From positions 9,288 to 73,287 of the forward strand of contig VGOW01000011.1 in NCBI GenBank assembly GCA_016875735.1: 64,000 nt of DNA, given 5' to 3'. This document shows positions 8,548 to 22,008 of the stretch, piece by piece. Position 1 is the stretch's first letter; each line of letters starts with the position of its first letter. The stretch comes from Chloroflexota bacterium. GTDB taxonomy: Bacteria; Chloroflexota; Anaerolineae; Anaerolineales; VGOW01. The notes under the pieces are model-generated. The model saw only the letters and a program-made list of their open reading frames with translations. It was not told the DNA's origin and searched no databases. The position numbers were made by a program, and so were the translations under genes.

Positions 8548-10140
8548 TTACCGCGCCCGCTTCACATCGCTCAAAATTTCGCGCGCGGCGTTTTGGCCGG
8601 GACGCCCGTGAATGCCCGCGCCGGGATGCGCGCCCGCGCCGCACAGATACAGCCCGTCGATGGGCGCGCGATACTGCGCCCAGCCGCCCACAGGCCGCAT
8701 GAAGAAGAGATGCTCCAGCATCATCTCGCCGTGACTCACGTTGCCTTCGCTGAGGCCGTATTCATTTTCGAGATCGACCGGCGTGAGCACTTGCCGGTGG
8801 AGGATCGCGTTCTTGAGATTGGGCGCGTATTCGGCCAGCGTGTTCACCACCGCGTCGCCCAACTGCTCTTTGGCCCCGGCCCAATCGCCGCGCAAGTGAT
8901 ACGGCGCATACTGGGCCCACACCGACATCGTGTGCTTGCCTTCGGGCGCGCGCGACGGATCGGTGAGTGAGGGGATGACGGCTTCGAGGTACGGCTTCTG
9001 CGAGGCCCGGCCATACTTCGCGTCGTCGTGCGCGCGTTCGAGATAGTTGAGATCGGGGCTGATGGAGATCGTGCCGCGAAGGTGCGCGCCACTTCCCGCC
9101 ACGGCGGTGAAGTTCGGCAATTCGGCCAGCGCCAAATTGACCTTCGCCGCTGCGCCGCGCATCTTGATGTTACGAACGCCGCGCACGAAATCGGGGCCGA
9201 GCAGCATCGGATCGAGCAAACCGAAAAATGTGCGCTTCGGATCGAGGCTGGATACGATTCTCTTCGCGGCGATCTCTTCGCCGGTGGACAGCGCCACTCC
9301 CACCGCCCGCTCACCCTTCACGATGATTTGAGCCGCTTCCGCGCCCGTCCGTATTTCTGCGCCGAAACTTTTGGCCGCGCGGGCCAGCGACTCGGCCAAC
9401 TTGCCGATGCCGCCGCGCACGAGGCCGTTGGCGCGGAACACTCCGGCGGGAGCGCTCACGCAGTTGTGCAGGAATAGCAGGCCCGTGCCGGTGGCGCGCG
9501 GCCCTTGCGTGAGTCCGCTAATGCCCATCGCGCCCAGCGTGCCTTTGAGCACGTCGGTCTCGAACCAATCGTTGAGCAACTCGAACACTGAAATGGGGAT
9601 GAAGCGCAGGAACTCCGGGCGATCTTTGCCGTTGAGTTTTTGCAGCTGGCGGCCCAAGCCGGCCAGCGAAAGCAGTTCGGCGGGCGAGGGGTTGGGCACG
9701 CCCGGCATGGTTAGCGACTCGATGTGTTCGAGCACGGCGGCCATGCGCGCCACCAGCGAAACGAAGGCGGGCCATTTCTCCGCATCGCGTTTCGAGAAGC
9801 GTTGGATCGCGTCGATGTTGCGCGCGGTCTCTTGCCACAACAGAAGATGGCCGCCATCCACGAGGGGCGAGAACACGGTCGGGTTCGAGCGAACGATGTC
9901 CAAACCGTGTCGGCCTAAATCCAGATCGCGCATCATCGCGGTGTTGAGCCAGCCGATGCTGTGAGCCACGCTATCGAATTTGAATCCGGGAAAGACTTCT
10001 TCGGTGGCGGCCATGCCGCCGAGCACAGGCCGCCGCTCGAGCACGATCACTTTTTGCCCGGCCTTCGCCAAATAGGCGGCGGTGGTGAGCCCGTTGTGCC
10101 CGCCGCCGATGATGATTGCGTCGTATGTGTTTGCCATCAT
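8548..10140 (-). CDS. NAD(P)/FAD-dependent oxidoreductase, phytoene-desaturase-related (COG1233-like), copy 2
   Basis: 'YDAIIIGGGHNGLTTAAYLAKAG' is a dinucleotide-binding motif. The ATG at 10140 overlaps the stop of the upstream paralog (ATGA). It is colinear with 10137..11726 along the full length. Confidence 0.85.
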   Translation of the reverse strand: MMANTYDAIIIGGGHNGLTTAAYLAKAGQKVIVLERRPVLGGMAATEEVFPGFKFDSVAHSIGWLNTAMMRDLDLGRHGLDIVRSNPTVFSPLVDGGHLLLWQETARNIDAIQRFSKRDAEKWPAFVSLVARMAAVLEHIESLTMPGVPNPSPAELLSLAGLGRQLQKLNGKDRPEFLRFIPISVFELLNDWFETDVLKGTLGAMGISGLTQGPRATGTGLLFLHNCVSAPAGVFRANGLVRGGIGKLAESLARAAKSFGAEIRTGAEAAQIIVKGERAVGVALSTGEEIAAKRIVSSLDPKRTFFGLLDPMLLGPDFVRGVRNIKMRGAAAKVNLALAELPNFTAVAGSGAHLRGTISISPDLNYLERAHDDAKYGRASQKPYLEAVIPSLTDPSRAPEGKHTMSVWAQYAPYHLRGDWAGAKEQLGDAVVNTLAEYAPNLKNAILHRQVLTPVDLENEYGLSEGNVSHGEMMLEHLFFMRPVGGWAQYRAPIDGLYLCGAGAHPGAGIHGRPGQNAAREILSDVKRAR

Positions 10141-11726
10141 TGCCTCCACTCCTTCAACACTTCCAGCGCGGCCAGCCGCCCGTTGGCGCCCATGATGCCG
10201 CCGCCGGGATGCGTGCCCGAGCCGCATTGATAGAAACTGCGGAGGGGTGTGCGGTAGTCGGCCCACGCCGGTGTGGGGCGAAGGAAGAAGAGTTGGTGCA
10301 GTAACAGCTCGCCGTGAAAGATGTTGCCTTCGGTGAGGCCCATCGAGTTTTCGATGTCCCACGGAGAAAGCACTTGCCGATGGAGGATGGCGCGTTTGAT
10401 GTTGGGCGCGAATTGCTCCAGCGTGTTGATCACCGCATCGCCGAAGGCTTCGCGTTTGGCCTCATCCCATCCGCCGTTGAGGTTGTATGGCGCGTACTGC
10501 ACGAAGCACGACATCACGTGTTTGCCGGGCGGGGCCATGTGCGGATCAATGAGCGAGGGGATGATGCAATCAATGTACGGCTGGCGCGAGAACTCGCCGT
10601 ACTTCGCGTCGTCGTAGGCGCGTTCGAGATGATCGAGCGTGGGGCTGATGGACATGGCCCCCCGAAGATGAGGCCCCATGCCGGGCATGGCGGTGAAGTT
10701 CGGCAGCTCGCTCAGCGAAAGATTCACTTTGCCCGACGAGCCTTGAATTTTGAATCGGCGGATGGCGTCGAGAAAATCGTTCGGCAGTTCTTTCGACTCG
10801 ATCAGTTTGAGGAAGGTGCGCTTCGGGTCGAGGCCGGAGAGGATGACTTTGGCGTAAATCTCTTCGCCGCTTTCGAGCGCGACACCGACTGCCTGCCCGT
10901 TTTTGATGATGACCTGCGACACTCCGGCGTTGCACCGAACCTCTGCGCCCAAACTTTTCGCCGCGCTGGCAATCGCCTCGCTGATGCCGCCCGTGCCGCC
11001 TTTGGCAAAACCCCAGGCGCGGAACGCGCCGTCGATCTCGCCCATGTAGTGATGCAGAAGAACGTAGGCCGAGCCGGGCGAGCGCGGCCCCATGAATGTG
11101 CCGATGATTCCGCTGGCCGACTTGGTAGCTTTGAGCGGCTCGCACTCGAACCACTCTTCCAAAAAGTCGGCCGCGCTCATGGTCATCAATTTGTACAGCC
11201 CGCGAAATTTGTCTTCGCCGAGCGAGGCCATATGCCCGCCGAGCGCGGCCAGCCCGCGCAGATCGCCGAAACTCAAGGCGGTGATGTCCGGCGGGATCAT
11301 GCTGAGGATGGGTTTGACAGCGCGGGCCATGTGATACATCGCCCGCCCGTATTCGTCGTACACGTCGGCATCCTTCGGCGAGTGGCGGTAAATCTCGCGC
11401 CGAGTCTTATCGTGATCATCCCAAAAGGCAATGTAGTCGCCGTTGAGCATGGGGGTGAAGGTGCTGGGCAGGGGCAGAATGGTGAGGCCGTGTTTCGCCA
11501 ATTGCAGATCACGAATGATCTCCGGGCGCAGGAGGCTCACTACATACGAGGCCACCGTGTATTTGAAGCCGGGGTTGATCTCTTCGGTGACGGCCGCGCC
11601 GCCGACGAGGTAGCGTTTTTCGAGCACAAGAGCGCTTTTGCCCGCCCGCGCCAAATAGGCCGCGGCCACCAATCCATTGTGCCCGCCGCCGATGATGATT
11701 GCGTCGTAAGTTTTTGCCATAGTCAA
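10137..11726 (-). CDS. NAD(P)/FAD-dependent oxidoreductase, phytoene-desaturase-related (COG1233-like), copy 1
   Basis: Contains 'YDAIIIGGGHNGLVAAAYLARAG'. It is the tandem paralog of 8548..10140. Confidence 0.85.
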   Translation of the reverse strand: MTMAKTYDAIIIGGGHNGLVAAAYLARAGKSALVLEKRYLVGGAAVTEEINPGFKYTVASYVVSLLRPEIIRDLQLAKHGLTILPLPSTFTPMLNGDYIAFWDDHDKTRREIYRHSPKDADVYDEYGRAMYHMARAVKPILSMIPPDITALSFGDLRGLAALGGHMASLGEDKFRGLYKLMTMSAADFLEEWFECEPLKATKSASGIIGTFMGPRSPGSAYVLLHHYMGEIDGAFRAWGFAKGGTGGISEAIASAAKSLGAEVRCNAGVSQVIIKNGQAVGVALESGEEIYAKVILSGLDPKRTFLKLIESKELPNDFLDAIRRFKIQGSSGKVNLSLSELPNFTAMPGMGPHLRGAMSISPTLDHLERAYDDAKYGEFSRQPYIDCIIPSLIDPHMAPPGKHVMSCFVQYAPYNLNGGWDEAKREAFGDAVINTLEQFAPNIKRAILHRQVLSPWDIENSMGLTEGNIFHGELLLHQLFFLRPTPAWADYRTPLRSFYQCGSGTHPGGGIMGANGRLAALEVLKEWRQ

Positions 11727-11730
11727 AGCC

Positions 11731-11793
11731 GTCAGCAGTCAGCGGTCAGCGGTCAGACTCGACACAGGCTGATCGCTGATTGCTGAACGCTGT
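11731..11793. repeat. inverted heptamer arrays forming a hairpin (GTCAGCG / GCTGATC family), intergenic
   Basis: GTCAGCAGTCAGCGGTCAGCGGTCAG ... CTGATCGCTGATTGCTGAACGCTG. Confidence 0.7.
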
Positions 11794-11796
11794 TCG

Positions 11797-12987
11797 CTAT
11801 TTCCGTTTTCGCTCCGGATCGAAGAACGGCAGTTTCGCCACGAAGGCTCGCGCCAGCCGCCGCTTGTGATCGACCGTGATTTCCATGAAGACCTGAGTGC
11901 CCGGCTGAGCGTGCGTCGTTTCGAGGTGCGCCAACACGATGTACTTCTTGAGCAGAGGCGACCACACGCCGCTCGTCGCGTAACCGATCTGCCGCCCGCC
12001 GGAATAAATGGGGACATCGGATCGCCATGCGGTCATCGGCAGATTCACGGGCAGGCCGACTTCGTTGTGCGCCCTCTCCAGCGACTCCCATTCCACTTCC
12101 AACCCAACCATGTGCCACGCCGAGCCGCGCTCCTTTTCGGCCAACAGCGCGCGCTTGCCCACGAAGTCGCCTTTGTCGAAGCTCACCGTCCAGCCCAAGC
12201 CCAACTCGAACGGCGATGACTTCTGCGATTCGATGAGCGCTTTCTTGGCCGAGGTGTAATCCACGTCAAGCATGATCAACCCGGCCTCGATGCGAGCCAC
12301 GTCGAGGGCGAGTATCCCGGCGGGGGTGATGTCATACGGAGTCCCGGCCTCGATCAACGTATCCCACAAGGCCGAGGCGTTGGCGGCGCCCACCCAGATT
12401 TCGTAGCCGAGATCGCCGGTGTATCCGGTTCGGGAAATCGTGGCCGCGATCCCGCCGATGCGCGCCGAAGTTAATCGGAAGTATTGGAGGCCGTCAAGAT
12501 TCGTATCACAGGCTTGATTGAGGATGGCGCGGGAGAGCGGCCCCTGCAATGCCACCGCGGCTGTGGAATCGGACTCGTCTTCGATCGCGAGATTCTTGAG
12601 GCCGAAGGCGTTGGCGTGCAACCAATGGAGATTCGGCTCGGCGGCGGTGAGGCGGAAAGTTTGCTCGTCGAGTCGGGCCAGCGTGCCGTCGTCGATCACT
12701 TTGCCATCTTCGTCGCACCACGTCGTGTACAACATTTGCCCCGCCGCACATTGGGCAACGTTGCGCGTCACCAATCGGTTGAGAAACCGAACGGCGTCGG
12801 GGCCGCGAATGATGTATTTGTGCAGGGGGGTGATGTCGATGAGCGCCGCCGAATTGCGAATGGCAAAGTATTCGCGGTCGTGATTCAATTCGTATGAGCC
12901 GACGACAAAGTAGCCGGCCCATCGCCGCCAGTTTTGCGGCTCGCACAACGGCGCCGTTCGGGGATGAAAAGGTGTGCCTCGCGTCAT
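11797..12987 (-). CDS. aminomethyltransferase-family protein (GcvT/DmdA-like, folate-dependent)
   Basis: Contains 'EYFAIRNSAALIDITPLHKYIIRGPDA', 'TRTGYTGDLGYEIW' and a C-terminal barrel region. These match the GcvT fold. Confidence 0.85.
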   Translation of the reverse strand: MTRGTPFHPRTAPLCEPQNWRRWAGYFVVGSYELNHDREYFAIRNSAALIDITPLHKYIIRGPDAVRFLNRLVTRNVAQCAAGQMLYTTWCDEDGKVIDDGTLARLDEQTFRLTAAEPNLHWLHANAFGLKNLAIEDESDSTAAVALQGPLSRAILNQACDTNLDGLQYFRLTSARIGGIAATISRTGYTGDLGYEIWVGAANASALWDTLIEAGTPYDITPAGILALDVARIEAGLIMLDVDYTSAKKALIESQKSSPFELGLGWTVSFDKGDFVGKRALLAEKERGSAWHMVGLEVEWESLERAHNEVGLPVNLPMTAWRSDVPIYSGGRQIGYATSGVWSPLLKKYIVLAHLETTHAQPGTQVFMEITVDHKRRLARAFVAKLPFFDPERKRK

Positions 12988-12999
12988 AAATGTCTCCGT

Positions 13000-13764
13000 T
13001 TATTTTGAGTATCCCAACGTTTTGGAGATCCGATCCGCCGCTTGAATCGCGCGCGGCGTTAGTTCCGCAATTCGCTCCGGCGTGAGCCGCGCGCTCGGCC
13101 CGCCCACCGAGATGGCCGCCACCACCCGCCCCTCGTGATTTCGCACCGGCGCACCCACCGCCACATGCCCCACTTCGAGTTCTTCGTCGGCAACGGCGTA
13201 GCCCTGCTCGCGCACGCGGTTCAGTTCGCGGCGAAGCGCGGCGGGCGAGGTGACGGAGTTCGCGGTGGGCTTCGCCAGTCGTCCGCTCAAAATGGCGTCG
13301 AACTCTTCGGTGGAGAGGTGAGCCAACAGCACTTTGCCGGTGGAGGTGGTATGCGCCGGCCAGCGCGTGCCAATGGAAGGGGTTGCGCCGACGAAATAGT
13401 GGCTAAGCACTTCATCGAGAATCAGGGTTTCGCCGCCGGTGAGAACTTCGAGCGTCGCCGTCTCGCCGGTCTTCTGCGCCAGGGCTTCGAGCTCGGGGCG
13501 GCTGGCGAGGTAGAGTCGGTTGGCGCGCAGGGCCCGGCCCCCCAGCGCAATGGCTTCGGGGCCGAGTCGGTATGAGTCGGTTTCGTCGTTTTTGGAGATC
13601 AGCCCAGCGCTTTCGAGCGCGGTGAGCATCCGAAAGGCGGTGGTCTTGTTCAGTTTGGCGGCGCGCGCCAGTTCTTTCAGCCCGAGTTCGGGTTGCGAAT
13701 CGGTGAAGGCTTTGAGCAGAGCCACCGCGCGCAATACAGATTGGGTGCCGGGATAGGCTGGCAT
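13000..13764 (-). CDS. IclR-family transcriptional regulator
   Basis: HTH 'LKELARAAKLNKTTAFRMLTALESAGLI' plus an IclR effector domain ('VGAPVRNHEGRVVAAISV'). I preferred the ATG at 13764 over the TTG at 13794. Confidence 0.85.
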   Translation of the reverse strand: MPAYPGTQSVLRAVALLKAFTDSQPELGLKELARAAKLNKTTAFRMLTALESAGLISKNDETDSYRLGPEAIALGGRALRANRLYLASRPELEALAQKTGETATLEVLTGGETLILDEVLSHYFVGATPSIGTRWPAHTTSTGKVLLAHLSTEEFDAILSGRLAKPTANSVTSPAALRRELNRVREQGYAVADEELEVGHVAVGAPVRNHEGRVVAAISVGGPSARLTPERIAELTPRAIQAADRISKTLGYSK

Positions 13765-13778
13765 GAGGAGAAAATTCC

Positions 13779-13807
13779 TTGACAACGCCCGCAAAGCCGA
13801 ATAGACT
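13779..13807 (+). promoter_or_regulatory. sigma70-like promoter in the iclR/yitT divergent region
   Basis: TTGACA (13779-13784), a 17-nt spacer, then TAGACT (13802-13807). The surrounding intergenic region is AT-rich. Confidence 0.4.
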
Positions 13808-13838
13808 ATGTTTCATATTGTAAAATGGTGTTTCAATA

Positions 13839-14705
13839 ATGTCAACGTCCAGATTCCACCAAATCGGCGATTACGCCATCATCATCGTAGGGGCATCACT
13901 GCAAGCGGTGGCCTTCTTTCTGTTTCTCGTCCCGGCGCAGTTTGCGCCCGGCGGACTCAGCGGCGCGGCGCAGATTCTCAACAGTTTCACCGGCTGGCCC
14001 ATCGGCGCGATTGTGCTGATTGCGAATGTGCCGCTCTTCATTCTCGGCTGGCGCTTTTTGGGCGGGCGGCGATTCTTCGCCCGAACGATCTTTGCTTCGG
14101 TCGTGTTCTCGGTGGTGCTCGATGCGCTCGCGCTTTTCTTTCCGCGCGGCGGCGTCACTGCCGATCCGGTGCTGAACGCGCTGTACGGCGCACTGCTGGG
14201 AGGCGTGGGCGGCGGGCTGGTCATCCGCTTTCAGGGCACGAGCGGCGGCACCGAGATTCTGGCGCGGCTCGTGTCGCAACGATACGGCATCCCGCTCTCG
14301 CAAAGCTACATGTACACTGATGCGGTTGTGGTGTTTCTGTCGGGATTGGCTTTCAGTTGGAGTCACGCGCTGTACGGACTCATCGTGCTGTATCTGTGGG
14401 GCGTCGTCACCGATTTCGTCGTCGAGGGGCAAGGCGTGATTCGCGCGGCGATGATCGTCACCGAACAGCCGGAGGCGGTGTCACGTCAGATCATGGCCGA
14501 CCTCGCGCGCGGCGTGACGGCGTGGGCGGGAACGGGAATGTATTCGGGCGAGGGAAAGCAGATCCTGTATTGCGTCGTCACCCGCTCAGAGTTGGCGCAG
14601 CTCAAAGCCATCATTCACGAAGCCGATCCGGATGCGTTTGTGGTGATCGGCGTGGCGCACGAGGCGTTGGGAGAAGGATTCAAACGACTGGGCGGGGAGA
14701 GGTGA
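13839..14705 (+). CDS. YitT-family membrane protein with a C-terminal DUF2179 domain
   Basis: Contains 'FLVPAQFAPGGLSG', 'GGLVIRFQGTSGGTEI' and a C-terminal 'MIVTEQPEAV...VVIGVAHEALGEGF'. Confidence 0.85.
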   Translation: MSTSRFHQIGDYAIIIVGASLQAVAFFLFLVPAQFAPGGLSGAAQILNSFTGWPIGAIVLIANVPLFILGWRFLGGRRFFARTIFASVVFSVVLDALALFFPRGGVTADPVLNALYGALLGGVGGGLVIRFQGTSGGTEILARLVSQRYGIPLSQSYMYTDAVVVFLSGLAFSWSHALYGLIVLYLWGVVTDFVVEGQGVIRAAMIVTEQPEAVSRQIMADLARGVTAWAGTGMYSGEGKQILYCVVTRSELAQLKAIIHEADPDAFVVIGVAHEALGEGFKRLGGER

Positions 14706-14734
14706 GTTATCATTCGCTCAAAGGAGTCCTCACG

Positions 14735-15559
14735 ATGAACACGCCCCTACCCCATTGGCGATACGACCGCCTCACTTGGCCGGAGATGAAAGCGGCTCTG
14801 GCTCGCAAGCCACAGCCCGTTGTGGCCGTGCCCATCGGCGCGGTGGAAGATCACGGCCCGCACACGCCCCTCTCCACCGACAACGACATCCTCGAAGGTG
14901 TGCTGGCCGAGTGCGGCAAACGCGCCGATGGCGATCTGCTCATTCTGCCGACGATCCCCTTTGGGCTTGACGAGCATCACATGGATTTTCCCGGCACGAT
15001 TGCGATTGACATCGAGACGACGCTGGCCTATCTTTCGCAAACGGCCATCTCCGTTGCCCGGCACGGCTTCACCCACATTTTGATCGTGAACGGGCACGGA
15101 TCGAATCAATCGATCTGCGATCTGGCGGCGCGCAAGTGTGTGCTTGCCGCCGGCATCGCCTGCGCCGCCACCACCGTGAACGCCGCCGTGAGTCCGGCGC
15201 TGGTGGCCGACGTGCTCGACACTGAGCGCAGAGGCGGCTGGGGCAGTGTGGGGCACGCCTGCGAATACGAGACGGCGATGATGCTGCATCTGCATCCCGA
15301 ACTTGTGCAGATAGATAAAGCCTACCGCGACATCGGCCAAGCCAAACTGAAATACTTCAATTGGGACTACCCGGAGCCGAGCGCGTATTCGTGGCAGGAT
15401 TGGTGGAGCCGATTTTCAAAGGAAGGGATCTGCGGCGACGCCTCGGCGGCCACCCCCGAGTTTGGCCGCCGGATGTTCGAGGTGACGGTGTCCCGTTTCG
15501 TCGAGCTCGTCCGCGAGTTTCAGGCCATCCCCATCAAGCCGCGAGTCGATCATCACTGA
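14735..15559 (+). CDS. creatininase-family amidohydrolase
   Basis: Contains 'VAVPIGAVEDHGPHTPLSTD', 'ILIVNGHGSN' and 'GHACEYETAMM'. The ATG at 14735 is preceded by AAGGAG. The upstream part of track ORF 14357.. is shadow. Confidence 0.85.
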   Translation: MNTPLPHWRYDRLTWPEMKAALARKPQPVVAVPIGAVEDHGPHTPLSTDNDILEGVLAECGKRADGDLLILPTIPFGLDEHHMDFPGTIAIDIETTLAYLSQTAISVARHGFTHILIVNGHGSNQSICDLAARKCVLAAGIACAATTVNAAVSPALVADVLDTERRGGWGSVGHACEYETAMMLHLHPELVQIDKAYRDIGQAKLKYFNWDYPEPSAYSWQDWWSRFSKEGICGDASAATPEFGRRMFEVTVSRFVELVREFQAIPIKPRVDHH

Positions 15560-15560
15560 G

Positions 15561-15589
15561 TTGCGCCTCTCCTCCTCAGTGCTATAATC
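15561..15589 (+). promoter_or_regulatory. sigma70-like promoter of the amino-acid ABC operon
   Basis: TTGCGC (15561-15566), a 17-nt spacer, then TATAAT (15584-15589). GGAGGAG precedes the ATG at 15620. Confidence 0.5.
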
Positions 15590-15619
15590 CGTCACACTAT
15601 CCTGAAGGAGGAGAGCAAA

Positions 15620-16531
15620 ATGAAAAAACTGAATATCGCCGTTAGCCTGCTGGTCGTCGCCGCGTTCGTGTTGGTTGCCTGCGGCGGCGGCGCCACCGAA
15701 GCGCCCAAGGATCTGCTCGGCCAGATCATGGCGCGCGGAACGCTCGTCGTTTCCACTGATCCGAACTACGCGCCGCAGAGCGTTGCCAAGCCCGATGGCA
15801 AGCGCACCGAGGGCACCAAGTGCGCCAGCGATCAGTTGACCGCCGGAGAACTCGAAGGCTTCGATGTTGACGTGGCCCTCGAACTGGGCAAGCGACTCGG
15901 CGTGGAGACATGCTTCGTCACCCCCGGCTGGGATCTGATCACCGCCGGAAGTTGGGCTGACAAATGGGACATCAGCGTTGGCTCGATGACCATCACCACG
16001 GGCCGCCAGCAAGTTTTGCACTTCACATCGCCGTATTATTACACCCCGGCGCAGTTCGCCGCCGCCGCCGATTCGGGCATCGCCTCGCTGGACGACATCG
16101 CTAACCAGCCGGTGTGCGTCGGTGTAGCCACCACCTATGAGTCGTATCTCAACAAGAAGTTCGACGATCTCGGCCTGCCGGAATCGAGCATCTACGCTCA
16201 GCCGCCGGAAGGCGTTACCGTCATCCCGCTCACGAGCGATCAGGACTGCGCGCAATCCATCGGCGCCGGCCGCACCGACTTTCAGGTGTATCTCACTTCG
16301 GGCACCGTCGTCGATCAGAACATCGCCAGCGGCGTGCCGGTGGTGAAAGTCGGCTCGCCCGTGTACTCGGAAGATTTGTCGGTGGCGATTGACAAGTCGC
16401 ATTCGCTCGACCCGACCTCGCTGGTGAGCAAACTCGATGAGGCGGTCAAAGCCATGCACACCGATGGCACACTAGCCAAACTCTCGAACCAGTGGTTTGG
16501 CATTGACCTGACACAGGCCCCCAACAAATAA
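15620..16531 (+). CDS. amino-acid ABC transporter substrate-binding lipoprotein (family 3 SBP)
   Basis: Lipobox 'LVACGG', plus 'LVVSTDPNYAPQS' and 'GFDVDVALELGKRLG'. Confidence 0.85.
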   Translation: MKKLNIAVSLLVVAAFVLVACGGGATEAPKDLLGQIMARGTLVVSTDPNYAPQSVAKPDGKRTEGTKCASDQLTAGELEGFDVDVALELGKRLGVETCFVTPGWDLITAGSWADKWDISVGSMTITTGRQQVLHFTSPYYYTPAQFAAAADSGIASLDDIANQPVCVGVATTYESYLNKKFDDLGLPESSIYAQPPEGVTVIPLTSDQDCAQSIGAGRTDFQVYLTSGTVVDQNIASGVPVVKVGSPVYSEDLSVAIDKSHSLDPTSLVSKLDEAVKAMHTDGTLAKLSNQWFGIDLTQAPNK

Positions 16532-16546
16532 CCCTCACGTTGACAT

Positions 16547-16580
16547 GTGGAAGCGGCTGGAAAGCCGCTTCCACTTTTTT
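16547..16580 (+). terminator. intra-operon terminator/attenuator hairpin after the SBP gene
   Basis: GTGGAAGCGGCT-GGAA-AGCCGCTTCCAC followed by TTTTTT. Confidence 0.7.
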
Positions 16581-16583
16581 GCT

Positions 16584-17549
16584 ATGGCAACCGTCACCAC
16601 CACCCCTTCGGCCTCCACCCCCGCCCCCAAAAGTCAGGCGCAGTTGATCCTCGAACGGAATCGACGAGCCCGCCGCAACTTCACGCTCAGTGTAGTCGCC
16701 TCGTGGATCGCCATGCTCCTCCTGTTGTTGTTTCTGTTCAGCGGCCTGAAGCTCAAGTCGAGCGCCGCCGGAACGCAAATTGCGATCACAAAATGGGTGG
16801 AGACAACAGGCAACAAACAGAAGCAGGATGAGACGCTGTTCAGTCTGCCCGTTGGAATCCCCAGCGGCGAGTTCGCGTATTCGACCATCACCCTCGACTG
16901 GGGCTTCGTGGGCAAAAACTTTGCCTTCATTCGAGACGGCATTTGGCAGACGATTGGCATCTCGGCCCTCTCGATTGTGACCGCCACCGTTTTGGCGCTG
17001 TTGGCCGCGCTCGGGCGGCTGTCCACCTTCCCGCCCGTGTACGCGCTTTCCACGTTTTACGTTTCGCTCATTCGCGGCACACCGCTCTTTTTGCAGGTCA
17101 TCTTCTTCTTTCTCGCCCTGCCGCAACTGGGCATCGATCTGTCTGGCCTGTGGGCCGGTGTGATCGCGCTCGGACTCAACTACGGCGCGTACATGAGCGA
17201 AATCTTCCGCGCCGGTTTGCTCTCGGTGGGCAAAGGCCAGCGCGAAGCGGCGTTGGCGTTGGGCATGACTCAATCGCAGATGATGCTTCGCATCGTCATC
17301 CCGCAGGCTCTGCGCTTTGCCGTTCCGCCCACGGGCAACGAATTCATTGCCATGCTGAAAGATTCCGCGCTGGTGTCGGCCACCGGCTTCGTGCACGAGA
17401 TTCTGTGGCGGGCCGGGGCCGCCGGAAAGCCGGTGAATCGCAACCTCGAGGCGTTGATGATCGCCGCCGTGTTCTACTGGTTCATGACTATTTCGTTCTC
17501 CGCACTGCAAGACCGGCTGGAAAAATACATGGCCCGCGGAGACCGGTGA
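16584..17549 (+). CDS. amino-acid ABC transporter permease (HisMQ/GlnP type)
   Basis: Contains '[14 protein letters not shown]' and the EAA-like '[23 protein letters not shown]'. I moved the start to the ATG at 16584 because 16547-16580 is a terminator-like hairpin. Confidence 0.8.
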
Positions 17550-17551
17550 CC

Positions 17552-17616
17552 ATTGCAGATTGCAGATTGCAGATTGCAGATTGAAAAATCTGCAATCTAA
17601 CATCTGCGATCTAAAA
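17552..17616. repeat. inverted heptamer arrays forming a hairpin ((ATTGCAG)x4), between the permease and ATPase genes
   Basis: ATTGCAG repeated four times perfectly, then AATCTGCAATCTAACATCTGCGATC. Confidence 0.8.
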
Positions 17617-17622
17617 TCCCCC

Positions 17623-18372
17623 GTGCCCATCGTCAAAGTTTCCAACCTCGACAAATACTTTGGCCGCCTGCATGTGCTGAAAAACATTTCGCTGGAAGTG
17701 GCCGAGCGCGAAGTGGTGGTGATTATTGGCCGCAGCGGCTCCGGCAAAAGCACCCTGCTCCGCTGTATTAACTTCCTCGAAGAGCCGGACAACGGGATGA
17801 TCGAAGTGGACGGCATCTCGGTGCCGGCTACCCACCGCAAGACGCGCGAGCACAATCAGCAAGTGCACGATCTGCGGCTCAAGACCGGCATGGTCTTCCA
17901 AGAGTTCAATCTGTTTCCGCACCTCAACGTGATCGAGAACATCATCGAAGCGCCGGTCACGGTGAAGAAGATGAGCAAAGAGCAGGCGTCGGAGATCGGG
18001 ATGCGCTTTTTGGAGAAGGTGGGGCTGGCGGCCAAGCGCAGTGAGTTTCCGGCGCGGTTGTCGGGCGGGCAGAAACAGCGGGTGGCCATTGCCCGCGCGC
18101 TGGCGATGGAGCCGCGGGTAATGCTCTTCGACGAGCCGACTTCGGCGCTCGACCCGGAATTGATCGGCGAAGTGCTGAACGTGATGAAGCAGCTGGCCAA
18201 AGAGGGCATGACGATGGCCATCGTCACCCACGAAATGTCGTTTGCCCGCGAGGTGGCCGACCGGGTGATTTACATGGACGAGGGCTGTATCATCGAGCAG
18301 GGCGAGCCGGAGAAAATCTTTGCCGCCCCCGCCGACCCGCGCACCAAACAATTCCTCGAACGCATTCGGTGA
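17623..18372 (+). CDS. amino-acid ABC transporter ATP-binding protein
   Basis: Walker A 'GRSGSGKST', signature '[15 protein letters not shown]' and Walker B '[11 protein letters not shown]'. The GTG at 17623 gives the usual '[13 protein letters not shown]' N-terminus. The upstream 21 codons of the track ORF are a heptamer repeat. Confidence 0.85.
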
Positions 18373-18419
18373 GGGAGGGCACGCCCCTTCCATCGCGCGT
18401 CAGCCCGCTGTTTTAGGCA

Positions 18420-19166
18420 GTGAGCACCGGCAAGCCACCCAGAGATCGCAGCTCAAACAACCCTGCAATGCCAAACGACGACTTCGTCTGGACAGTCCGC
18501 ACGTTCATCTACCAGCATTTTGCGGCGACGACGCGCGCGCCGGGGCTCGGCGAGATCGCCCGACACTTTGGCCTGAGCGCCGGGCAAGCGGGCGAAACCC
18601 TCACGGCGCTTCACGAGAAGCACGCGCTCTTTCTCGAACCGGGGACGCTCGACATCCGCATCGCCAATCCCTTTTCGGCCATCCCCACTCCGTTCGAGGT
18701 GGAAGCGGACGGCAAAAGATATTGGGCCAACTGCGCCTGGGATAGTTTCGGCATCCCCGCCGCCCTGCACGCCACCGAGGCCGCCATCCGATCGGTGTGC
18801 GCTCACAGCGGAGCGCCGCTGTCGTTGAGCGTGAAGCAAGGTCGGGCCGTGAGCAGCGGAGAAGTCGTCCATTTTCTCGTGCCGTTCCAACGGTGGTACG
18901 AAGATATGACCTTCACTTGAGCGACGATCCGATTCTTCCGGTCGGAAGAAGACTTACAGCAGTGGCAAAGCGAGCGCGGCAAGGCCGAGGGCGAAACGCT
19001 CCGCCCCGAACAAGTTTGGGAGTTGTCGCGACTGTGGTATCACAACCGCCTCTCGCCGGACTACCGGGGCCGAACGGTAGCGCAAGTGGAAGAGATTTTC
19101 CACGCGCTCAATCTCACCTCGAAGTTTTGGTACATGGACAAGCCGACGGACGAATTGCAGAAGTGA
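18420..19166 (+). CDS. alkylmercury-lyase (MerB)-family protein with in-frame UGA at 18918-18920 (candidate selenocysteine)
   Basis: The track ORF stops at the TGA at 18918. The same frame then stays open for 81 codons with no start codon, and continues the MerB fold ('ATIRFFRSEEDLQQW...'). 'NCAWD' and 'VCAHSGAPLSLSV' match the MerB Cys96/Asp99 and Cys117 regions. A hairpin lies at 18933-18950. An alternative start is the ATG at 18468. Confidence 0.7.
18933..18950 (+). promoter_or_regulatory. SECIS-like hairpin downstream of UGA 18918
   Basis: A perfect 7-bp stem TTCTTCC/GGAAGAA with loop GGTC. It begins 12 nt after the UGA. Confidence 0.6.
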
Positions 19167-20713
19167 CTGTCGGCAACAAGGCTTTTCACCACTGAGTTCA
19201 CAGAGAACACGGAGAAGACCCATAAAAATCTCTGTGAACTCTGTGGCCTCAGTGGTTCAAATGCCAGTTCTTGTGCGGGATTCGGATTCAAGAAGCGCTC
19301 TCTCAGGGCGCCGCGCAGAGCAATTCGTTCGATGCATTCGGCAGTATCGGCGGGCAACAGCGGCGGCTGATGCTGTTCGATGAGCGCGCGAGTCCGGGTG
19401 TTCACCCGACTCTCGAAAGCCAACCGCTCCGAGTCGGCCCACTCTTTATCTCCACCCCGATACAGCAATTGCGAATACCACACATCGCGCATGTGTTCAA
19501 GCGTATAGGGATGGGTGACAAATTCGCCCCTCGTTTCAACTCCGGCAAATAGATTGAGCGACAACGAGTCGGCGTCCACCGCCACCGCGCCGAAGAGGTG
19601 CGAGAGCATCGCGGCAATTTCGTCGGTCGCCGCAATCATCTCCGGCATCACCACCGTCGCGCTTCCCAGCAACCCCACATCGTGAATCAGATTCGCGCCG
19701 ACGAGGCTGGCCATCATGCACGACGAGGCCGCTTCGAGAATCGCTTGCCCGTCGAACGTCTGCGAGTCGCTGGTACCGCCGGTGCCGAAATTTGGCAGTT
19801 CGAAATAATGCGCCATCTCGGCCATCAGCGAATTGCCCAATTGAAACTCCGGCGCCCCGTATGAAAACACGGTGGTCTTCATATCCATCACCGAAGCCAT
19901 GCCGCCGAAGATGAACGGCGCGCCCGGGCGTTTGAGTTGATGCACGACCAACGCGCTGAGCGATTCGGCGCACAGTTGAGCGATGATGGCCGCCTGACTC
20001 TGCGGGGCCGTGCCGCCCATCGCCGCATACGGAACATAGGCGACGGGCAGGCCGTGTTCGGCGCAATACAACAGCTTGCCGATAGACTCATCGGGGTGCA
20101 GCAACGGGGACACCGGCTCCGCGTAAACGATCACGTTCGAGCGCGCGCGCAATGCCGAGTCGCCGCCCACCGCCAATGCGGCCATCTCTCGCATGTCGCG
20201 CAGTGAGTCGAGAGAGATGGGCATGGTCAGCACGGGCTTCGTCGAATGCTGGAGGCACTGCGCCAGCGATACGCGGTCGGCGATCTCCGGCGGGCAATCG
20301 GCAGTCAAGCCGGAGGCGGTGATGAAGTGAATGTTTGGCAGTGAGTCGGCGAGCACGGCATTGCCAATCACATCCTGTTTGAGGCATGGCCGCCGCTCGC
20401 GCGTGAACGGATCGAGCACGTCGGGCGCGTCGGTGTGCGCCCCGTAATAAATGTTGCGGCCCTCCAAGCGCATGGCCTCGCCGCCATGGCGCGCAAAAAT
20501 CGAAATCGCGCTCGGCGCGCACTCCACTGCTTGCACGATCAAGTGCGGCGGAATGAAAACGCGGTCGCCTTCGATGCGCGCGCCCGCGCGCCGCAAAAGT
20601 TCGCGGGCTTCCGGCTCGGTGAGGCGCACGCCGATTCGGTCGAGCAAGTTGTGCGCGGCTTCGGCGATGGCTTCGCGCTCTTCGCCGCTCAAAAGGTGAA
20701 GTGTCGGTTTCAT
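19061..20713 (-). CDS. MttB-superfamily (trimethylamine methyltransferase family) protein, non-pyrrolysine type
   Basis: Full-length similarity to the MttB family ('PVAYVPYAAMGGTAPQS', 'GTGGTSDS'). There is no in-frame TAG. The C-terminal ~85 aa runs through a hairpin repeat and is antisense to the merB-like 3' end, so the native stop appears to be lost. Confidence 0.8.
   Translation of the reverse strand: MKPTLHLLSGEEREAIAEAAHNLLDRIGVRLTEPEARELLRRAGARIEGDRVFIPPHLIVQAVECAPSAISIFARHGGEAMRLEGRNIYYGAHTDAPDVLDPFTRERRPCLKQDVIGNAVLADSLPNIHFITASGLTADCPPEIADRVSLAQCLQHSTKPVLTMPISLDSLRDMREMAALAVGGDSALRARSNVIVYAEPVSPLLHPDESIGKLLYCAEHGLPVAYVPYAAMGGTAPQSQAAIIAQLCAESLSALVVHQLKRPGAPFIFGGMASVMDMKTTVFSYGAPEFQLGNSLMAEMAHYFELPNFGTGGTSDSQTFDGQAILEAASSCMMASLVGANLIHDVGLLGSATVVMPEMIAATDEIAAMLSHLFGAVAVDADSLSLNLFAGVETRGEFVTHPYTLEHMRDVWYSQLLYRGGDKEWADSERLAFESRVNTRTRALIEQHQPPLLPADTAECIERIALRGALRERFLNPNPAQELAFEPLRPQSSQRFLWVFSVFSVNSVVKSLVADSHFCNSSVGLSMYQNFEVRLSAWKISSTCATVRPR
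19187..19258. repeat. imperfect palindromic repeat element between convergent genes
   Basis: CCACTGAG-TTCACAGAG...CTCTGTGAA...CTCAGTGG. Confidence 0.7.
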
Positions 20714-20719
20714 GGGGAC

Positions 20720-21874
20720 TCACAATCCGGCCAACGCGCTCCGCAAGTCGGCGATCAAGTCATCTTTGCTTTCCAGCCCCACCGAGATTCGGATCAACCC
20801 GGCGCTCACTTCGAGCGGCGAGCCTTGCGTGCTGGCGTGAGTCATCGCCGCCGGAATCTCGATGAGCGATTCGATGCCGCCGAGCGACTCGGCCAATGCA
20901 AACAACCGGGTGCGCTCCGCCACCCGCCGCGCCGCGTCGGCGCCGCCGCGCACCACAAACGAGATCATGCCGCCGCCGTTTCGCATCTGCCGCATGGCTA
21001 ACGCGTGCTGAGGATGATCGGGCAGGCCGGGATAGATCACCTCGTCCACTGCCGGGTGGTCGGCAAGAAATTGGGCGACGGCCAGCGCGTTCCCGGCGTG
21101 GCGATCCATGCGCACCGGCAGAGTCTTCACCCCGCGCAGAACGAGCCAGCAATCCATCGGGCCCGGCACCGCGCCGATGGCGTTCTGCAAAAACTTCAGC
21201 CGTTCGTGAATCGCGTCGTCGTCGAGGATGGCCGCGCCGCCGATCACATCGGAGTGCCCACCGAGATATTTGGTGGTGGAGTGCGCAACGATATCCGCGC
21301 CGAGTTCGAGCGGTCGTTGCAGGTAGGGGGTGGCGAAGGTGTTGTCCACGCCCATCAGCGTGCGCGGGCCGTTGGCGTGCGCGAGGTCGGCGATGGCGCG
21401 GATGTCGAAAATTTTGAGGCGCGGGTTGGTGGGTGTCTCCAGCCACACCAGCCGCGTGTTCGGGCGCAGGCCGTCGCGCACAGCGGCGAGATCGGTCATC
21501 TCCACAAACGTGTATTCGATGCCATAGTCTTTGAGAATTTTGTCGAGAAGCCGGAACGTGCCGCCGTACACATCGTTGCCCGCCAGCACGTGTTCGCCCG
21601 CCGCCGCCAGCCGGAACACGGTATCGATGGCGGCCATGCCCGACGCAAAGGCCAGCCCGTGCTTGCCGCCTTCGAGCGCGGCGAGGCAGGCTTCGAGCGC
21701 CGCGCGCGTGGGGTTGCCCGTGCGCGAATACTCGTAGCCTTTGTGTTGGCCCACCCCATCCTGCACGTAGGTTGAGGTTTGATAGATCGGCGTCATCACC
21801 GCGCCGGTGGATGGATCGGGCTGTTGCCCGGCGTGGATAGCGAGGGTTTCGATGCGGTAGTGGTGATCAGTCAT
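20720..21874 (-). CDS. PLP-dependent cystathionine gamma-synthase/gamma-lyase family enzyme
   Basis: Contains 'YSRTGNPT', 'NTFATPYLQRPLELGADIVAHSTTKYLGGHSD' (PLP-Lys) and 'RISVGLE'. The ATG is at 21874. Confidence 0.9.
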   Translation of the reverse strand: MTDHHYRIETLAIHAGQQPDPSTGAVMTPIYQTSTYVQDGVGQHKGYEYSRTGNPTRAALEACLAALEGGKHGLAFASGMAAIDTVFRLAAAGEHVLAGNDVYGGTFRLLDKILKDYGIEYTFVEMTDLAAVRDGLRPNTRLVWLETPTNPRLKIFDIRAIADLAHANGPRTLMGVDNTFATPYLQRPLELGADIVAHSTTKYLGGHSDVIGGAAILDDDAIHERLKFLQNAIGAVPGPMDCWLVLRGVKTLPVRMDRHAGNALAVAQFLADHPAVDEVIYPGLPDHPQHALAMRQMRNGGGMISFVVRGGADAARRVAERTRLFALAESLGGIESLIEIPAAMTHASTQGSPLEVSAGLIRISVGLESKDDLIADLRSALAGL

Positions 21875-22008
21875 TGTGCGCGCAACGGTGGGCGGGGAGT
21901 GGCGGACGACCGTGATCGTCCGCCCCACCATCCACCGTCAAACTGAAATGTTCTCGCAATATGCCTTTGTCGCCCCGACAGGGTGTTTATTGTATAATCG
22001 TTCGGAGC

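Follow-up and report, generated by a model that had tools for sequence, protein, structure and literature searches.

A window of 64,000 nt from a Chloroflexota bacterium (GCA_016875735.1, contig VGOW01000011.1, positions 9,288-73,287 of the forward strand; all coordinates below are counted within this window) carries a gene related to the organomercurial lyase MerB that is interrupted by an in-frame UGA codon at 18918-18920. The region 18468-19166 on the plus strand forms one gene, whose product is a MerB-family protein of 232 residues, but it has been annotated as two open reading frames (ORFs). The UGA falls on the column of the catalytic residue Cys159 of MerB and is followed by a hairpin resembling a bacterial selenocysteine insertion sequence (SECIS). 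The codon is very probably recoded as selenocysteine (Sec), which would make this a real selenoprotein gene.

One MerB-like gene is annotated as two ORFs

The peptide of the upstream ORF ends with '...WYEDMTFT' at the TGA 18918-18920, and the same frame remains open for 81 further codons (ATIRFFRSEEDLQQW...) up to the TGA at 19164-19166. An initial annotation of this DNA had described these boundaries, and they were confirmed in the sequence. The part before the UGA encodes a winged-helix-like N-terminal region followed by two thirds of the MerB catalytic domain; the remainder of that domain lies after the UGA, together with a conserved helical extension at the C-terminus (Table 1). The gene start, originally placed at GTG 18420, was moved to ATG 18468 (MPNDDF...), in agreement with the deposited protein and all orthologues. 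The initial annotation had also stated that no start codon is available until late in the downstream frame. The first canonical in-frame start is indeed TTG 19023, but GenBank starts the tail ORF earlier, at an ATC.

Table 1. Features of the MerB-like gene in window coordinates
Feature	Position	Strand	Basis
MerB-like gene, first 150 codons	18468..18917	+	ORF; start from deposited protein P0001 and orthologue N-termini
Cys89 (TGC), counterpart of MerB catalytic Cys96, motif NCAWD	18732..18734	+	alignment to MerB/MerB2 chains
Asp92 (GAT), counterpart of MerB proton donor Asp99	18741..18743	+	alignment to MerB/MerB2 chains
In-frame UGA, proposed selenocysteine 151, MerB Cys159 column	18918..18920	+	alignment; TGA in 83/83 orthologous copies
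Last 81 codons and true stop TGA 19164-19166	18921..19166	+	Pfam tail match, conserved peptide
SECIS-like hairpin, UUCUUCC/GGAAGAA, loop GGUC 18940-18943	18933..18950	+	fold and cross-genome conservation

In GenBank, the upstream part is deposited as the hypothetical protein FJ030_05250 (150 aa) and the tail separately as FJ030_05255 (79 aa), with its start at the Ile codon ATC. Many related genomes show the same division, with an entry of 150 aa called 'organomercurial lyase' or 'hypothetical protein' and a second ORF of about 70 aa. Searching with the tail yielded 74 clusters of separately called 'hypothetical proteins' of 70-79 residues, FJ030_05255 among them. No full-length Sec-containing version was seen among the close database relatives; the one protein deposited there at full length, P0004, has 'W' at the UGA column, and its DNA reads TGA. 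None of the curated NCBIfam models covers the window protein.

The UGA occupies the Cys159 column of a MerB fold

The read-through product was scored with a placeholder Cys at the UGA. It matched the Pfam MerB family (PF03243) with 107.6 bits over profile positions 1-125 of 126, against a cut-off of 27 bits. The truncated ORF reached 60.8 bits and covered profile positions 1-77 only, while the 81-residue tail by itself scored 28.9 bits at positions 87-125, above the cut-off. The scores against the NCBIfam models of mer-operon MerB, NF033555 and NF009710, were far below their thresholds (43.5 versus 200 bits and 42.2 versus 193, respectively).

In phmmer alignments to PDB chains, the UGA lies on the first Cys of the SFCC motif in R831b MerB and on the single active-site Cys of MerB2 (5c17). 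Residue counting and a 130-sequence MAFFT alignment likewise identify the column as that of MerB Cys159, and the profile alignment keeps the UGA there, as the initial annotation had proposed. The Cys96 and Asp99 equivalents that it had named are also present: phmmer aligned 'NCAWD' to 'WCALD' of MerB, and VCAHSGAPLSLSV to HCAATGAPVSLTV, which contains MerB Cys117. Cys89 is invariant in 32 aligned orthologues. Asp92 is invariant within the Sec clade, and the same position holds D or C in the Cys-form relatives. Each member of the catalytic triad Cys96/Asp99/Cys159 thus has its counterpart, the third of which would be Sec instead of Cys.

The fold was assessed on the full-length orthologue P0004, which is 47% identical to the window protein. 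Its AlphaFold2 model has a predicted local distance difference test score (pLDDT) of 97.1 and a predicted template modelling score (pTM) of 0.93. The top 11 PDB matches returned by Foldseek with this model are all MerB or MerB2 (E-values from 1e-9 to 3e-6, template modelling score of about 0.6). The MerB fold, claimed earlier from the letters of the DNA, is thus established, as is the column on which the UGA falls.

The UGA and the downstream frame are conserved in orthologues

Of 892 relatives found by word-indexed searching among 5.8 billion proteins, the best 120 are almost all 148-155 residues long and stop after one and the same invariant Thr. Scanning one genome per species gave at least 588 relatives, and the DNA of the best 80 was examined. 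These 80 loci come nearly all from Chloroflexota and are labelled Anaerolineales, Villigracilaceae, Caldilineaceae, Thermomicrobiales, Ardenticatenaceae or Phototrophicaceae. In the 83 orthologous copies, from 82 sources, the residue before the UGA is always Thr (ACN, 83/83) and the following codon is always TGA (83/83), with not a single TAA, TAG, TGC or TGT. By comparison, the true stops of these copies are mixed (TGA 32, TAA 27, TAG 22). The copies have diverged considerably, with a median identity of 55% around the UGA site.

The frame after the UGA is open for 66-81 codons in all complete copies except that of locus L068, and it encodes a conserved tail peptide, [AG]-T-[MI]-L-[LF]-F-R-S-E-E..W..RGE..QVWELS.LWYHNRLS. 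No orthologue ends at this position with a stop other than UGA, and the downstream frame is conserved, so that the comparison with orthologues bears out the initial annotation. A conserved in-frame UGA flanked on both sides by conserved coding sequence, which is what marks a bacterial selenoprotein gene, is therefore present. UGA is also the commonest true stop in the window and terminates the MerB-like gene itself, which excludes a global change of the genetic code.

The deposited annotation would correspond to two separate genes, with termination at the UGA and a tail made by re-initiation, so that a split MerB-like protein would lack the Cys159 residue. Public annotation does call the tail as an ORF of its own in the 74 clusters mentioned above, and the codon at +10..+12 after the UGA is ATG in 52/83 copies. 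However, the same codon is ATC, ATT or ATA in the other 31/83, including the window (ATC), and such a Met/Ile swap is what a buried residue typically shows; in the deposited tail protein, the start had to be placed at ATC. The two codons directly after the UGA, which separate it from +10, are conserved in the amino acid they encode but vary freely at the third position. Because the post-UGA codons evolve as codons, and because Met/Ile at +10 is not the pattern of a start codon, we conclude that the UGA is read through; the continuity of the gene across it is established. Two genes would also have to be reconciled with a TGA kept in every copy despite mixed true stops, with relatives that carry Cys at the UGA column in an uninterrupted chain, and with the loss of a catalytic residue through the split. 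We regard this arrangement as very improbable.

An ordinary Cys-type MerB-like gene could have acquired a premature stop by pseudogene formation or by an assembly or sequencing error; this would require only a single base change from TGC or TGT to TGA, and the L068 orthologue does contain an additional in-frame TAG. Against this, the identical window protein occurs on 11 contigs from independent assemblies, and the TGA is shared by all 83 diverged orthologues together with the conserved downstream frame. The comparative data effectively refute such an origin, to which we assign next to no probability.

Several individual loci are unusual. In L068 (10442), the extra TAG lies 19 codons into the tail and reflects a pseudogene or a long-read assembly error. 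Locus L075 (9703, 10439) has two tandem Sec-type copies in one Chloroflexia metagenome-assembled genome (MAG), the upstream copy with a deletion in the tail. Three orthologous loci (L019, L071, and L077) are found in MAGs labelled Acidobacteriota, NC10, and Gemmatimonadota; these labels are explained either by horizontal transfer or by Chloroflexota contigs contaminating the bins.

A conserved SECIS-like hairpin follows the UGA

Twelve nucleotides separate the UGA from a perfect 7-bp hairpin, UUCUUCC-GGUC-GGAAGAA, with arms at 18933-18939 and 18944-18950; the position, stem and GGUC loop reported in the initial annotation are correct. The conserved core of this hairpin spans 18934-18948 and includes CUUCC-GGUC-GGAAG. 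In the window, the loop GGUC is located at +23..+26, which gives an apical loop containing G and U at a suitable distance after the UGA. The bSECISearch criteria place the apical loop about 16-37 nt after the UGA. The earlier description of the element as SECIS-like at a canonical distance also holds in that its loop is identical to the GGUC of E. coli fdhF. The fdhF SECIS, taken from the K-12 genome, is likewise a hairpin within the coding sequence just 3' of the UGA, with its loop at +22..+25. The Chloroflexota element has a shorter conserved stem (5-7 bp) than fdhF and lacks both a bulged U and conservation in the lower stem.

The hairpin is set in codons whose synonymous positions are nearly fixed. 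Across the 83 copies, the third positions +18, +21, +24, and +27 have an entropy of 0-0.16 bits, compared with 1.3-1.95 bits at flanking third positions. Codon choice within the hairpin departs strongly from that in the rest of the same genes: Phe is encoded by TTC in 108/108 cases (background 63%), Leu by CTC in 55/55 (29%), Ser by TCG in 81/81 (22%), and Arg by CGG in 68/70, against a background of 20% for CGG and 50% for CGC. The pairs C18-G31, U19-A/G30, U20-A29, C21-G28, and C22-G27 are intact in 82-83 of the 83 copies, and U17-A32 holds in 73. The RNAalifold consensus is a 5-bp stem with a 4-nt loop. The loop consensus is (G/A)GUC, in which 81/83 copies have G at the synonymous position 24. 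In contrast, the four Cys-form genes compared, which share the F-R-S/T-E peptide, all use CGC and lack the GGUC hairpin. These patterns indicate selection on the hairpin as an RNA element. Its significance derives from this cross-genome comparison and not from folding energy.

The inverted repeat CTTCCGGTCGGAAG could in principle be a DNA operator or an RNA signal other than a SECIS, since it is a near-perfect palindrome and no covariance model recognises it. Yet the repeat tracks the TGA, being missing in 4/4 Cys forms and in one form with TGG at the column, and an unrelated AT-rich gene with TGA (L093) has a hairpin of another sequence at the same place. Moreover, the non-palindromic synonymous base G24 is almost fixed, as expected of a SECIS loop and not of a DNA palindrome. 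An operator or unrelated signal is therefore extremely improbable.

Sec and Cys forms of the family

An exhaustive HMMER search of 1.84 billion cluster representatives identified 1604 related clusters. Among the full-length relatives (28-50% identity, n = 46), the UGA column is occupied by Cys in 38, by 'W' in four and by another residue in four. The homologues with Cys aligned to the UGA, as expected for a selenoprotein, thus comprise 38/46 relatives in addition to MerB Cys159 itself, and the Sec/Cys pairing is established. Two of the 'W' entries (P0004 and P0228) are actually TGA codons that the gene caller translated with genetic code 4, while in the other two (P0129 and P0159) the codon is a real TGG.

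The Cys-containing relatives, for example P0121, P0123/HET9796281.1 from Thermoanaerobaculia and the fungal KAK0660336.1, are 28-50% identical to the window protein, with the C-terminal extension included. They share its motifs PFS..PT, NCAW, and T-C-x-T-[IM]-L-L-F, and differ from the window gene in having TGC at the column and no GGUC hairpin. The equivalent of Asp99 is Cys in 18/46 relatives (CAWC; e.g., P0124, P0132, and P0136), which would give a three-Cys site. Some Cys-form relatives (P0206/L091; P0140, P0192, and P0194) have a fused C-terminal GerE/LuxR helix-turn-helix domain or extra N-terminal domains, and one (P0137) is fungal, from Lasiodiplodia.

A distant, AT-rich gene on a 917-bp Joint Genome Institute contig (L093) has TGA at the column as well. 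Its hairpin, AUUUUCUU-CUG-AAGAAAAU, is of separate sequence and lies on the same F-S-S-E-E-N codons, one codon farther from the UGA. L093 counts as an independent lineage for the combination of TGA and hairpin. A neighbour-joining tree, which is too crude for counting switches between Sec and Cys, contains one main pure Sec clade of 73 copies and small ones besides.

Evidence weighing against selenocysteine

Several observations weigh against Sec or against the function proposed below. Neither the window nor the 1.3 Mb of orthologous loci yielded selA, selB, selD or a tRNA-Sec. ARAGORN detected no tRNA in the window and no tRNA-Sec among the 7 tRNAs of the 1.3 Mb, and when the window and all loci were searched by tblastn with the E. 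coli proteins SelA, SelB, and SelD, a single weak SelB match came up, which proved to be LepA. Two metagenomic relatives have a genuine TGG at the Sec column; one of these forms (L095) keeps the hairpin intact, whereas in the other (L094) the hairpin is lost and the Cys96 position is occupied by Ser. The folding energy of the hairpin is no better than that of shuffled sequence (z = +1.5). Its stem is short (5-6 bp) and almost invariant, with little compensatory covariation, the sole double change being U-A to C-G at pair 19/30 in both L075 copies. Rfam searches of the whole window at the gathering threshold and of 18800-19100 at permissive settings gave no SECIS or other relevant family. As to function, the gene has no conserved neighbourhood, no merA, merR, merT or merP and no SAO locus beside it, no MerA partner is evident for product release, and an Hg-Se bond would be very strong.

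Further scans for selenoprotein features were made around the gene. Within the window, no convincing pair of coding-like ORFs linked by a TGA was found, and the SECIS core motif, when sought elsewhere, gave nothing meaningful. In a de novo scan of all loci for U/C pairing, a clean U-U signal was obtained only for the MerB-like family. The use of Sec as such has precedent in the phylum: three selenoprotein families were described in Chloroflexi (PMC1794560), a tRNA-Sec of 8/4 structure is on record (PMC5389517), and 46-49 selenoproteins were reported for Dehalococcoidia (PMC13326102).

Alternatively, the UGA might be recoded to a standard amino acid (Cys, Trp or Gly), through a suppressor or tRNA-Sec-like tRNA or by hairpin-stimulated read-through, in a selenium-free manner. 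Unusual tRNAs do occur in Chloroflexi, among them tRNA-Sec variants of the 8/4 type (PMC5389517), and the missing Sec machinery in the loci and the TGG codons of two relatives would fit such recoding. On the other hand, the loop sequence and spacing of the hairpin match a SelB-dependent SECIS, and the column is that of a metal-binding catalytic Cys, a classic site of Sec/Cys exchange where the MerB-like selenoprotein SaoL has Sec. A TGY codon would supply Cys without any recoding apparatus and is used in 0/83 copies, and UGA serves this genome as an ordinary, frequent stop. Insertion of a standard amino acid is improbable, and we favour Sec.

Relation to SaoL and to mer-operon MerB

The central idea, Sec in a MerB-like lyase, has already been published for SaoL. 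Haft and Gwadz described SaoL as a MerB-like organometallic lyase selenoprotein with Sec aligned to MerB Cys159 (10.1101/2022.07.06.499078), and it is listed in reviews (PMC9312934, PMC13188914). SaoL has a C-U motif, belongs to a nine-gene SAO locus with a Sec-containing ABC importer, SaoE, SaoC and others, and was reported from anaerobes only, namely Firmicutes, Spirochaetes, and Deltaproteobacteria (10.1101/2022.07.06.499078). The window protein shares with SaoL the family PF03243, the equivalents of Cys96 and Asp99, a UGA at the Cys159 position after which homology resumes, and typical truncation in databases. It differs in other respects. Its score against the SaoL model NF040728 is 41.3 bits, compared with a cut-off of 140, and the match covers positions 38-136 of 159. 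The motif at the UGA is T-U-[A/G] instead of C-U, so that the Cys-Sec dipeptide is missing. The SAO locus is absent at the window gene, whose neighbours were not scanned with the individual Sao hidden Markov models. The hosts differ as well, anaerobes for SaoL and genomes labelled Caldilineaceae, Anaerolineales, Villigracilaceae or Thermomicrobiales for the loci studied here. The window protein is thus not SaoL: it belongs to a Chloroflexota clade outside the SaoL model, with Cys-type relatives of its own. No paper describing a Chloroflexota Sec MerB-like clade was found in the literature searched.

With MerB (R831b; 3F0P, 1S6L) and MerB2 (5C17), the window protein has in common the fold, the positions of Cys96, Asp99, and Cys159, and the structural Cys117. 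The identity to these proteins is only 15-20%; Sec would replace Cys159, and Cys160 is lacking. Unlike them, the window protein is associated with neither a mer operon nor a MerA partner and has a conserved C-terminal extension of about 40 residues.

Genomic context

Upstream of the MerB-like gene lies an amino-acid-type ATP-binding cassette (ABC) importer (SBP_bac_3, permease, and ATPase), and the gene is convergent with an MTTB-family methyltransferase and a pyridoxal-phosphate enzyme of Cys/Met metabolism. IclR, YitT, creatininase, GCV_T, and two amine oxidases are encoded farther upstream. Together, the cluster at about 8548-21931 resembles one for methylated-amine or creatinine catabolism; its amine oxidases are of the flavin adenine dinucleotide type, and its MTTB gene has no in-frame UAG. 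These neighbours accompany the MerB-like gene in 0 of the other 80 genomes and were rejected as functional evidence, being not conserved beside the gene elsewhere.

A different arrangement recurs in 20-26 Anaerolineales/Villigracilis loci (L012, L016, L023, L026, L027, L038, L039, L041, L044, L048, L052, and others). There the gene lies, on the same strand, between a 3-hydroxy-3-methylglutaryl-CoA (HMG-CoA) reductase and an HMG-CoA-synthase-like protein with a thiolase. These mevalonate genes are located from about -1.8 kb to +4 kb of the MerB-like gene, and DnaA and a GAF histidine kinase are found farther upstream. This synteny looks lineage-specific and was likewise rejected as functional evidence. 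No mer-family Pfam match and no sel gene was found in the 64-kb window, and no mer-operon genes were seen among the recurrent neighbours in the 80 loci. The locus is therefore not a classical mer operon, in agreement with the initial annotation. Because the gene stands alone, without conserved neighbours, its role is read from homology alone.

Two other ORFs of the window have features of their own. The MTTB-family ORF (19061-20713, minus strand) is 550 aa long, of which the Pfam MTTB domain covers residues 3-461 only. Its last 85 or so codons cross an inverted repeat at 19183-19261 (33-nt arms), and the ORF shares 106 nt with the MerB-like tail. Independent assemblies contain an identical 550-aa product; the long end of this ORF may be untranslated 3' sequence that lacks a stop by chance. 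At 496-2934 on the plus strand, an 813-residue protein has FtsZ GTPase and C-terminal domains at 430-731 only, and its N-terminal 430 residues gave no Pfam match.

Proposed mechanism and implications

The UGA at 18918-18920 is most likely read as Sec. The mRNA hairpin, set in the codons of the conserved F-F-R-S-E-E peptide, would act as a bacterial SECIS whose apical loop, containing G and U, is bound by SelB with Sec-tRNA(Sec). SelB would then deliver Sec at the UGA in competition with release factor 2 (RF2). The resulting active site would consist of Cys89, Asp92, and Sec151, corresponding to Cys96, Asp99, and Cys159 of MerB. By analogy with MerB, the soft metal or metalloid centre of an organometallic substrate may be bound between the thiolate and the selenolate, and aspartate-mediated protonolysis could then cleave the carbon-metal bond. 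From these correspondences we infer the identity of residue 151 as Sec and the lyase chemistry: the protein would be a protonolytic carbon-metal lyase of the MerB type, acting on an organomercurial or another substrate.

A further-reaching proposal is that these proteins form an unrecognised, stand-alone family of Chloroflexota selenoenzymes, independent of SaoL, that acts on a carbon-metal(loid) or carbon-chalcogen substrate other than an organomercurial (e.g., organo-arsenic, -tin, -lead or -selenium) and uses a minimal 5-bp SECIS within the FRSEE codons. The lineages Caldilineaceae, Thermomicrobiales, and Villigracilaceae include aerobes. Taken as a whole, we advance this proposal tentatively and consider it somewhat doubtful. 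If it were true, the fragments annotated as 'organomercurial lyase' in environmental genomes would in many cases point to a new, selenium-dependent branch of organometal biochemistry.

If the UGA encodes Sec, both the inventories of mercury-resistance genes and the selenoproteomes of Chloroflexota would be wrong for this MerB-like locus. The element CUUCC-GGUC-GGAAG would provide a very compact, sequence-defined SECIS for the study of SelB recognition in Chloroflexota. The finding would extend the single published MerB relative with Sec for Cys159, SaoL, to a large stand-alone clade in a different phylum, which suggests that the use of a selenolate at the metal site of MerB-like enzymes is a solution that recurs.

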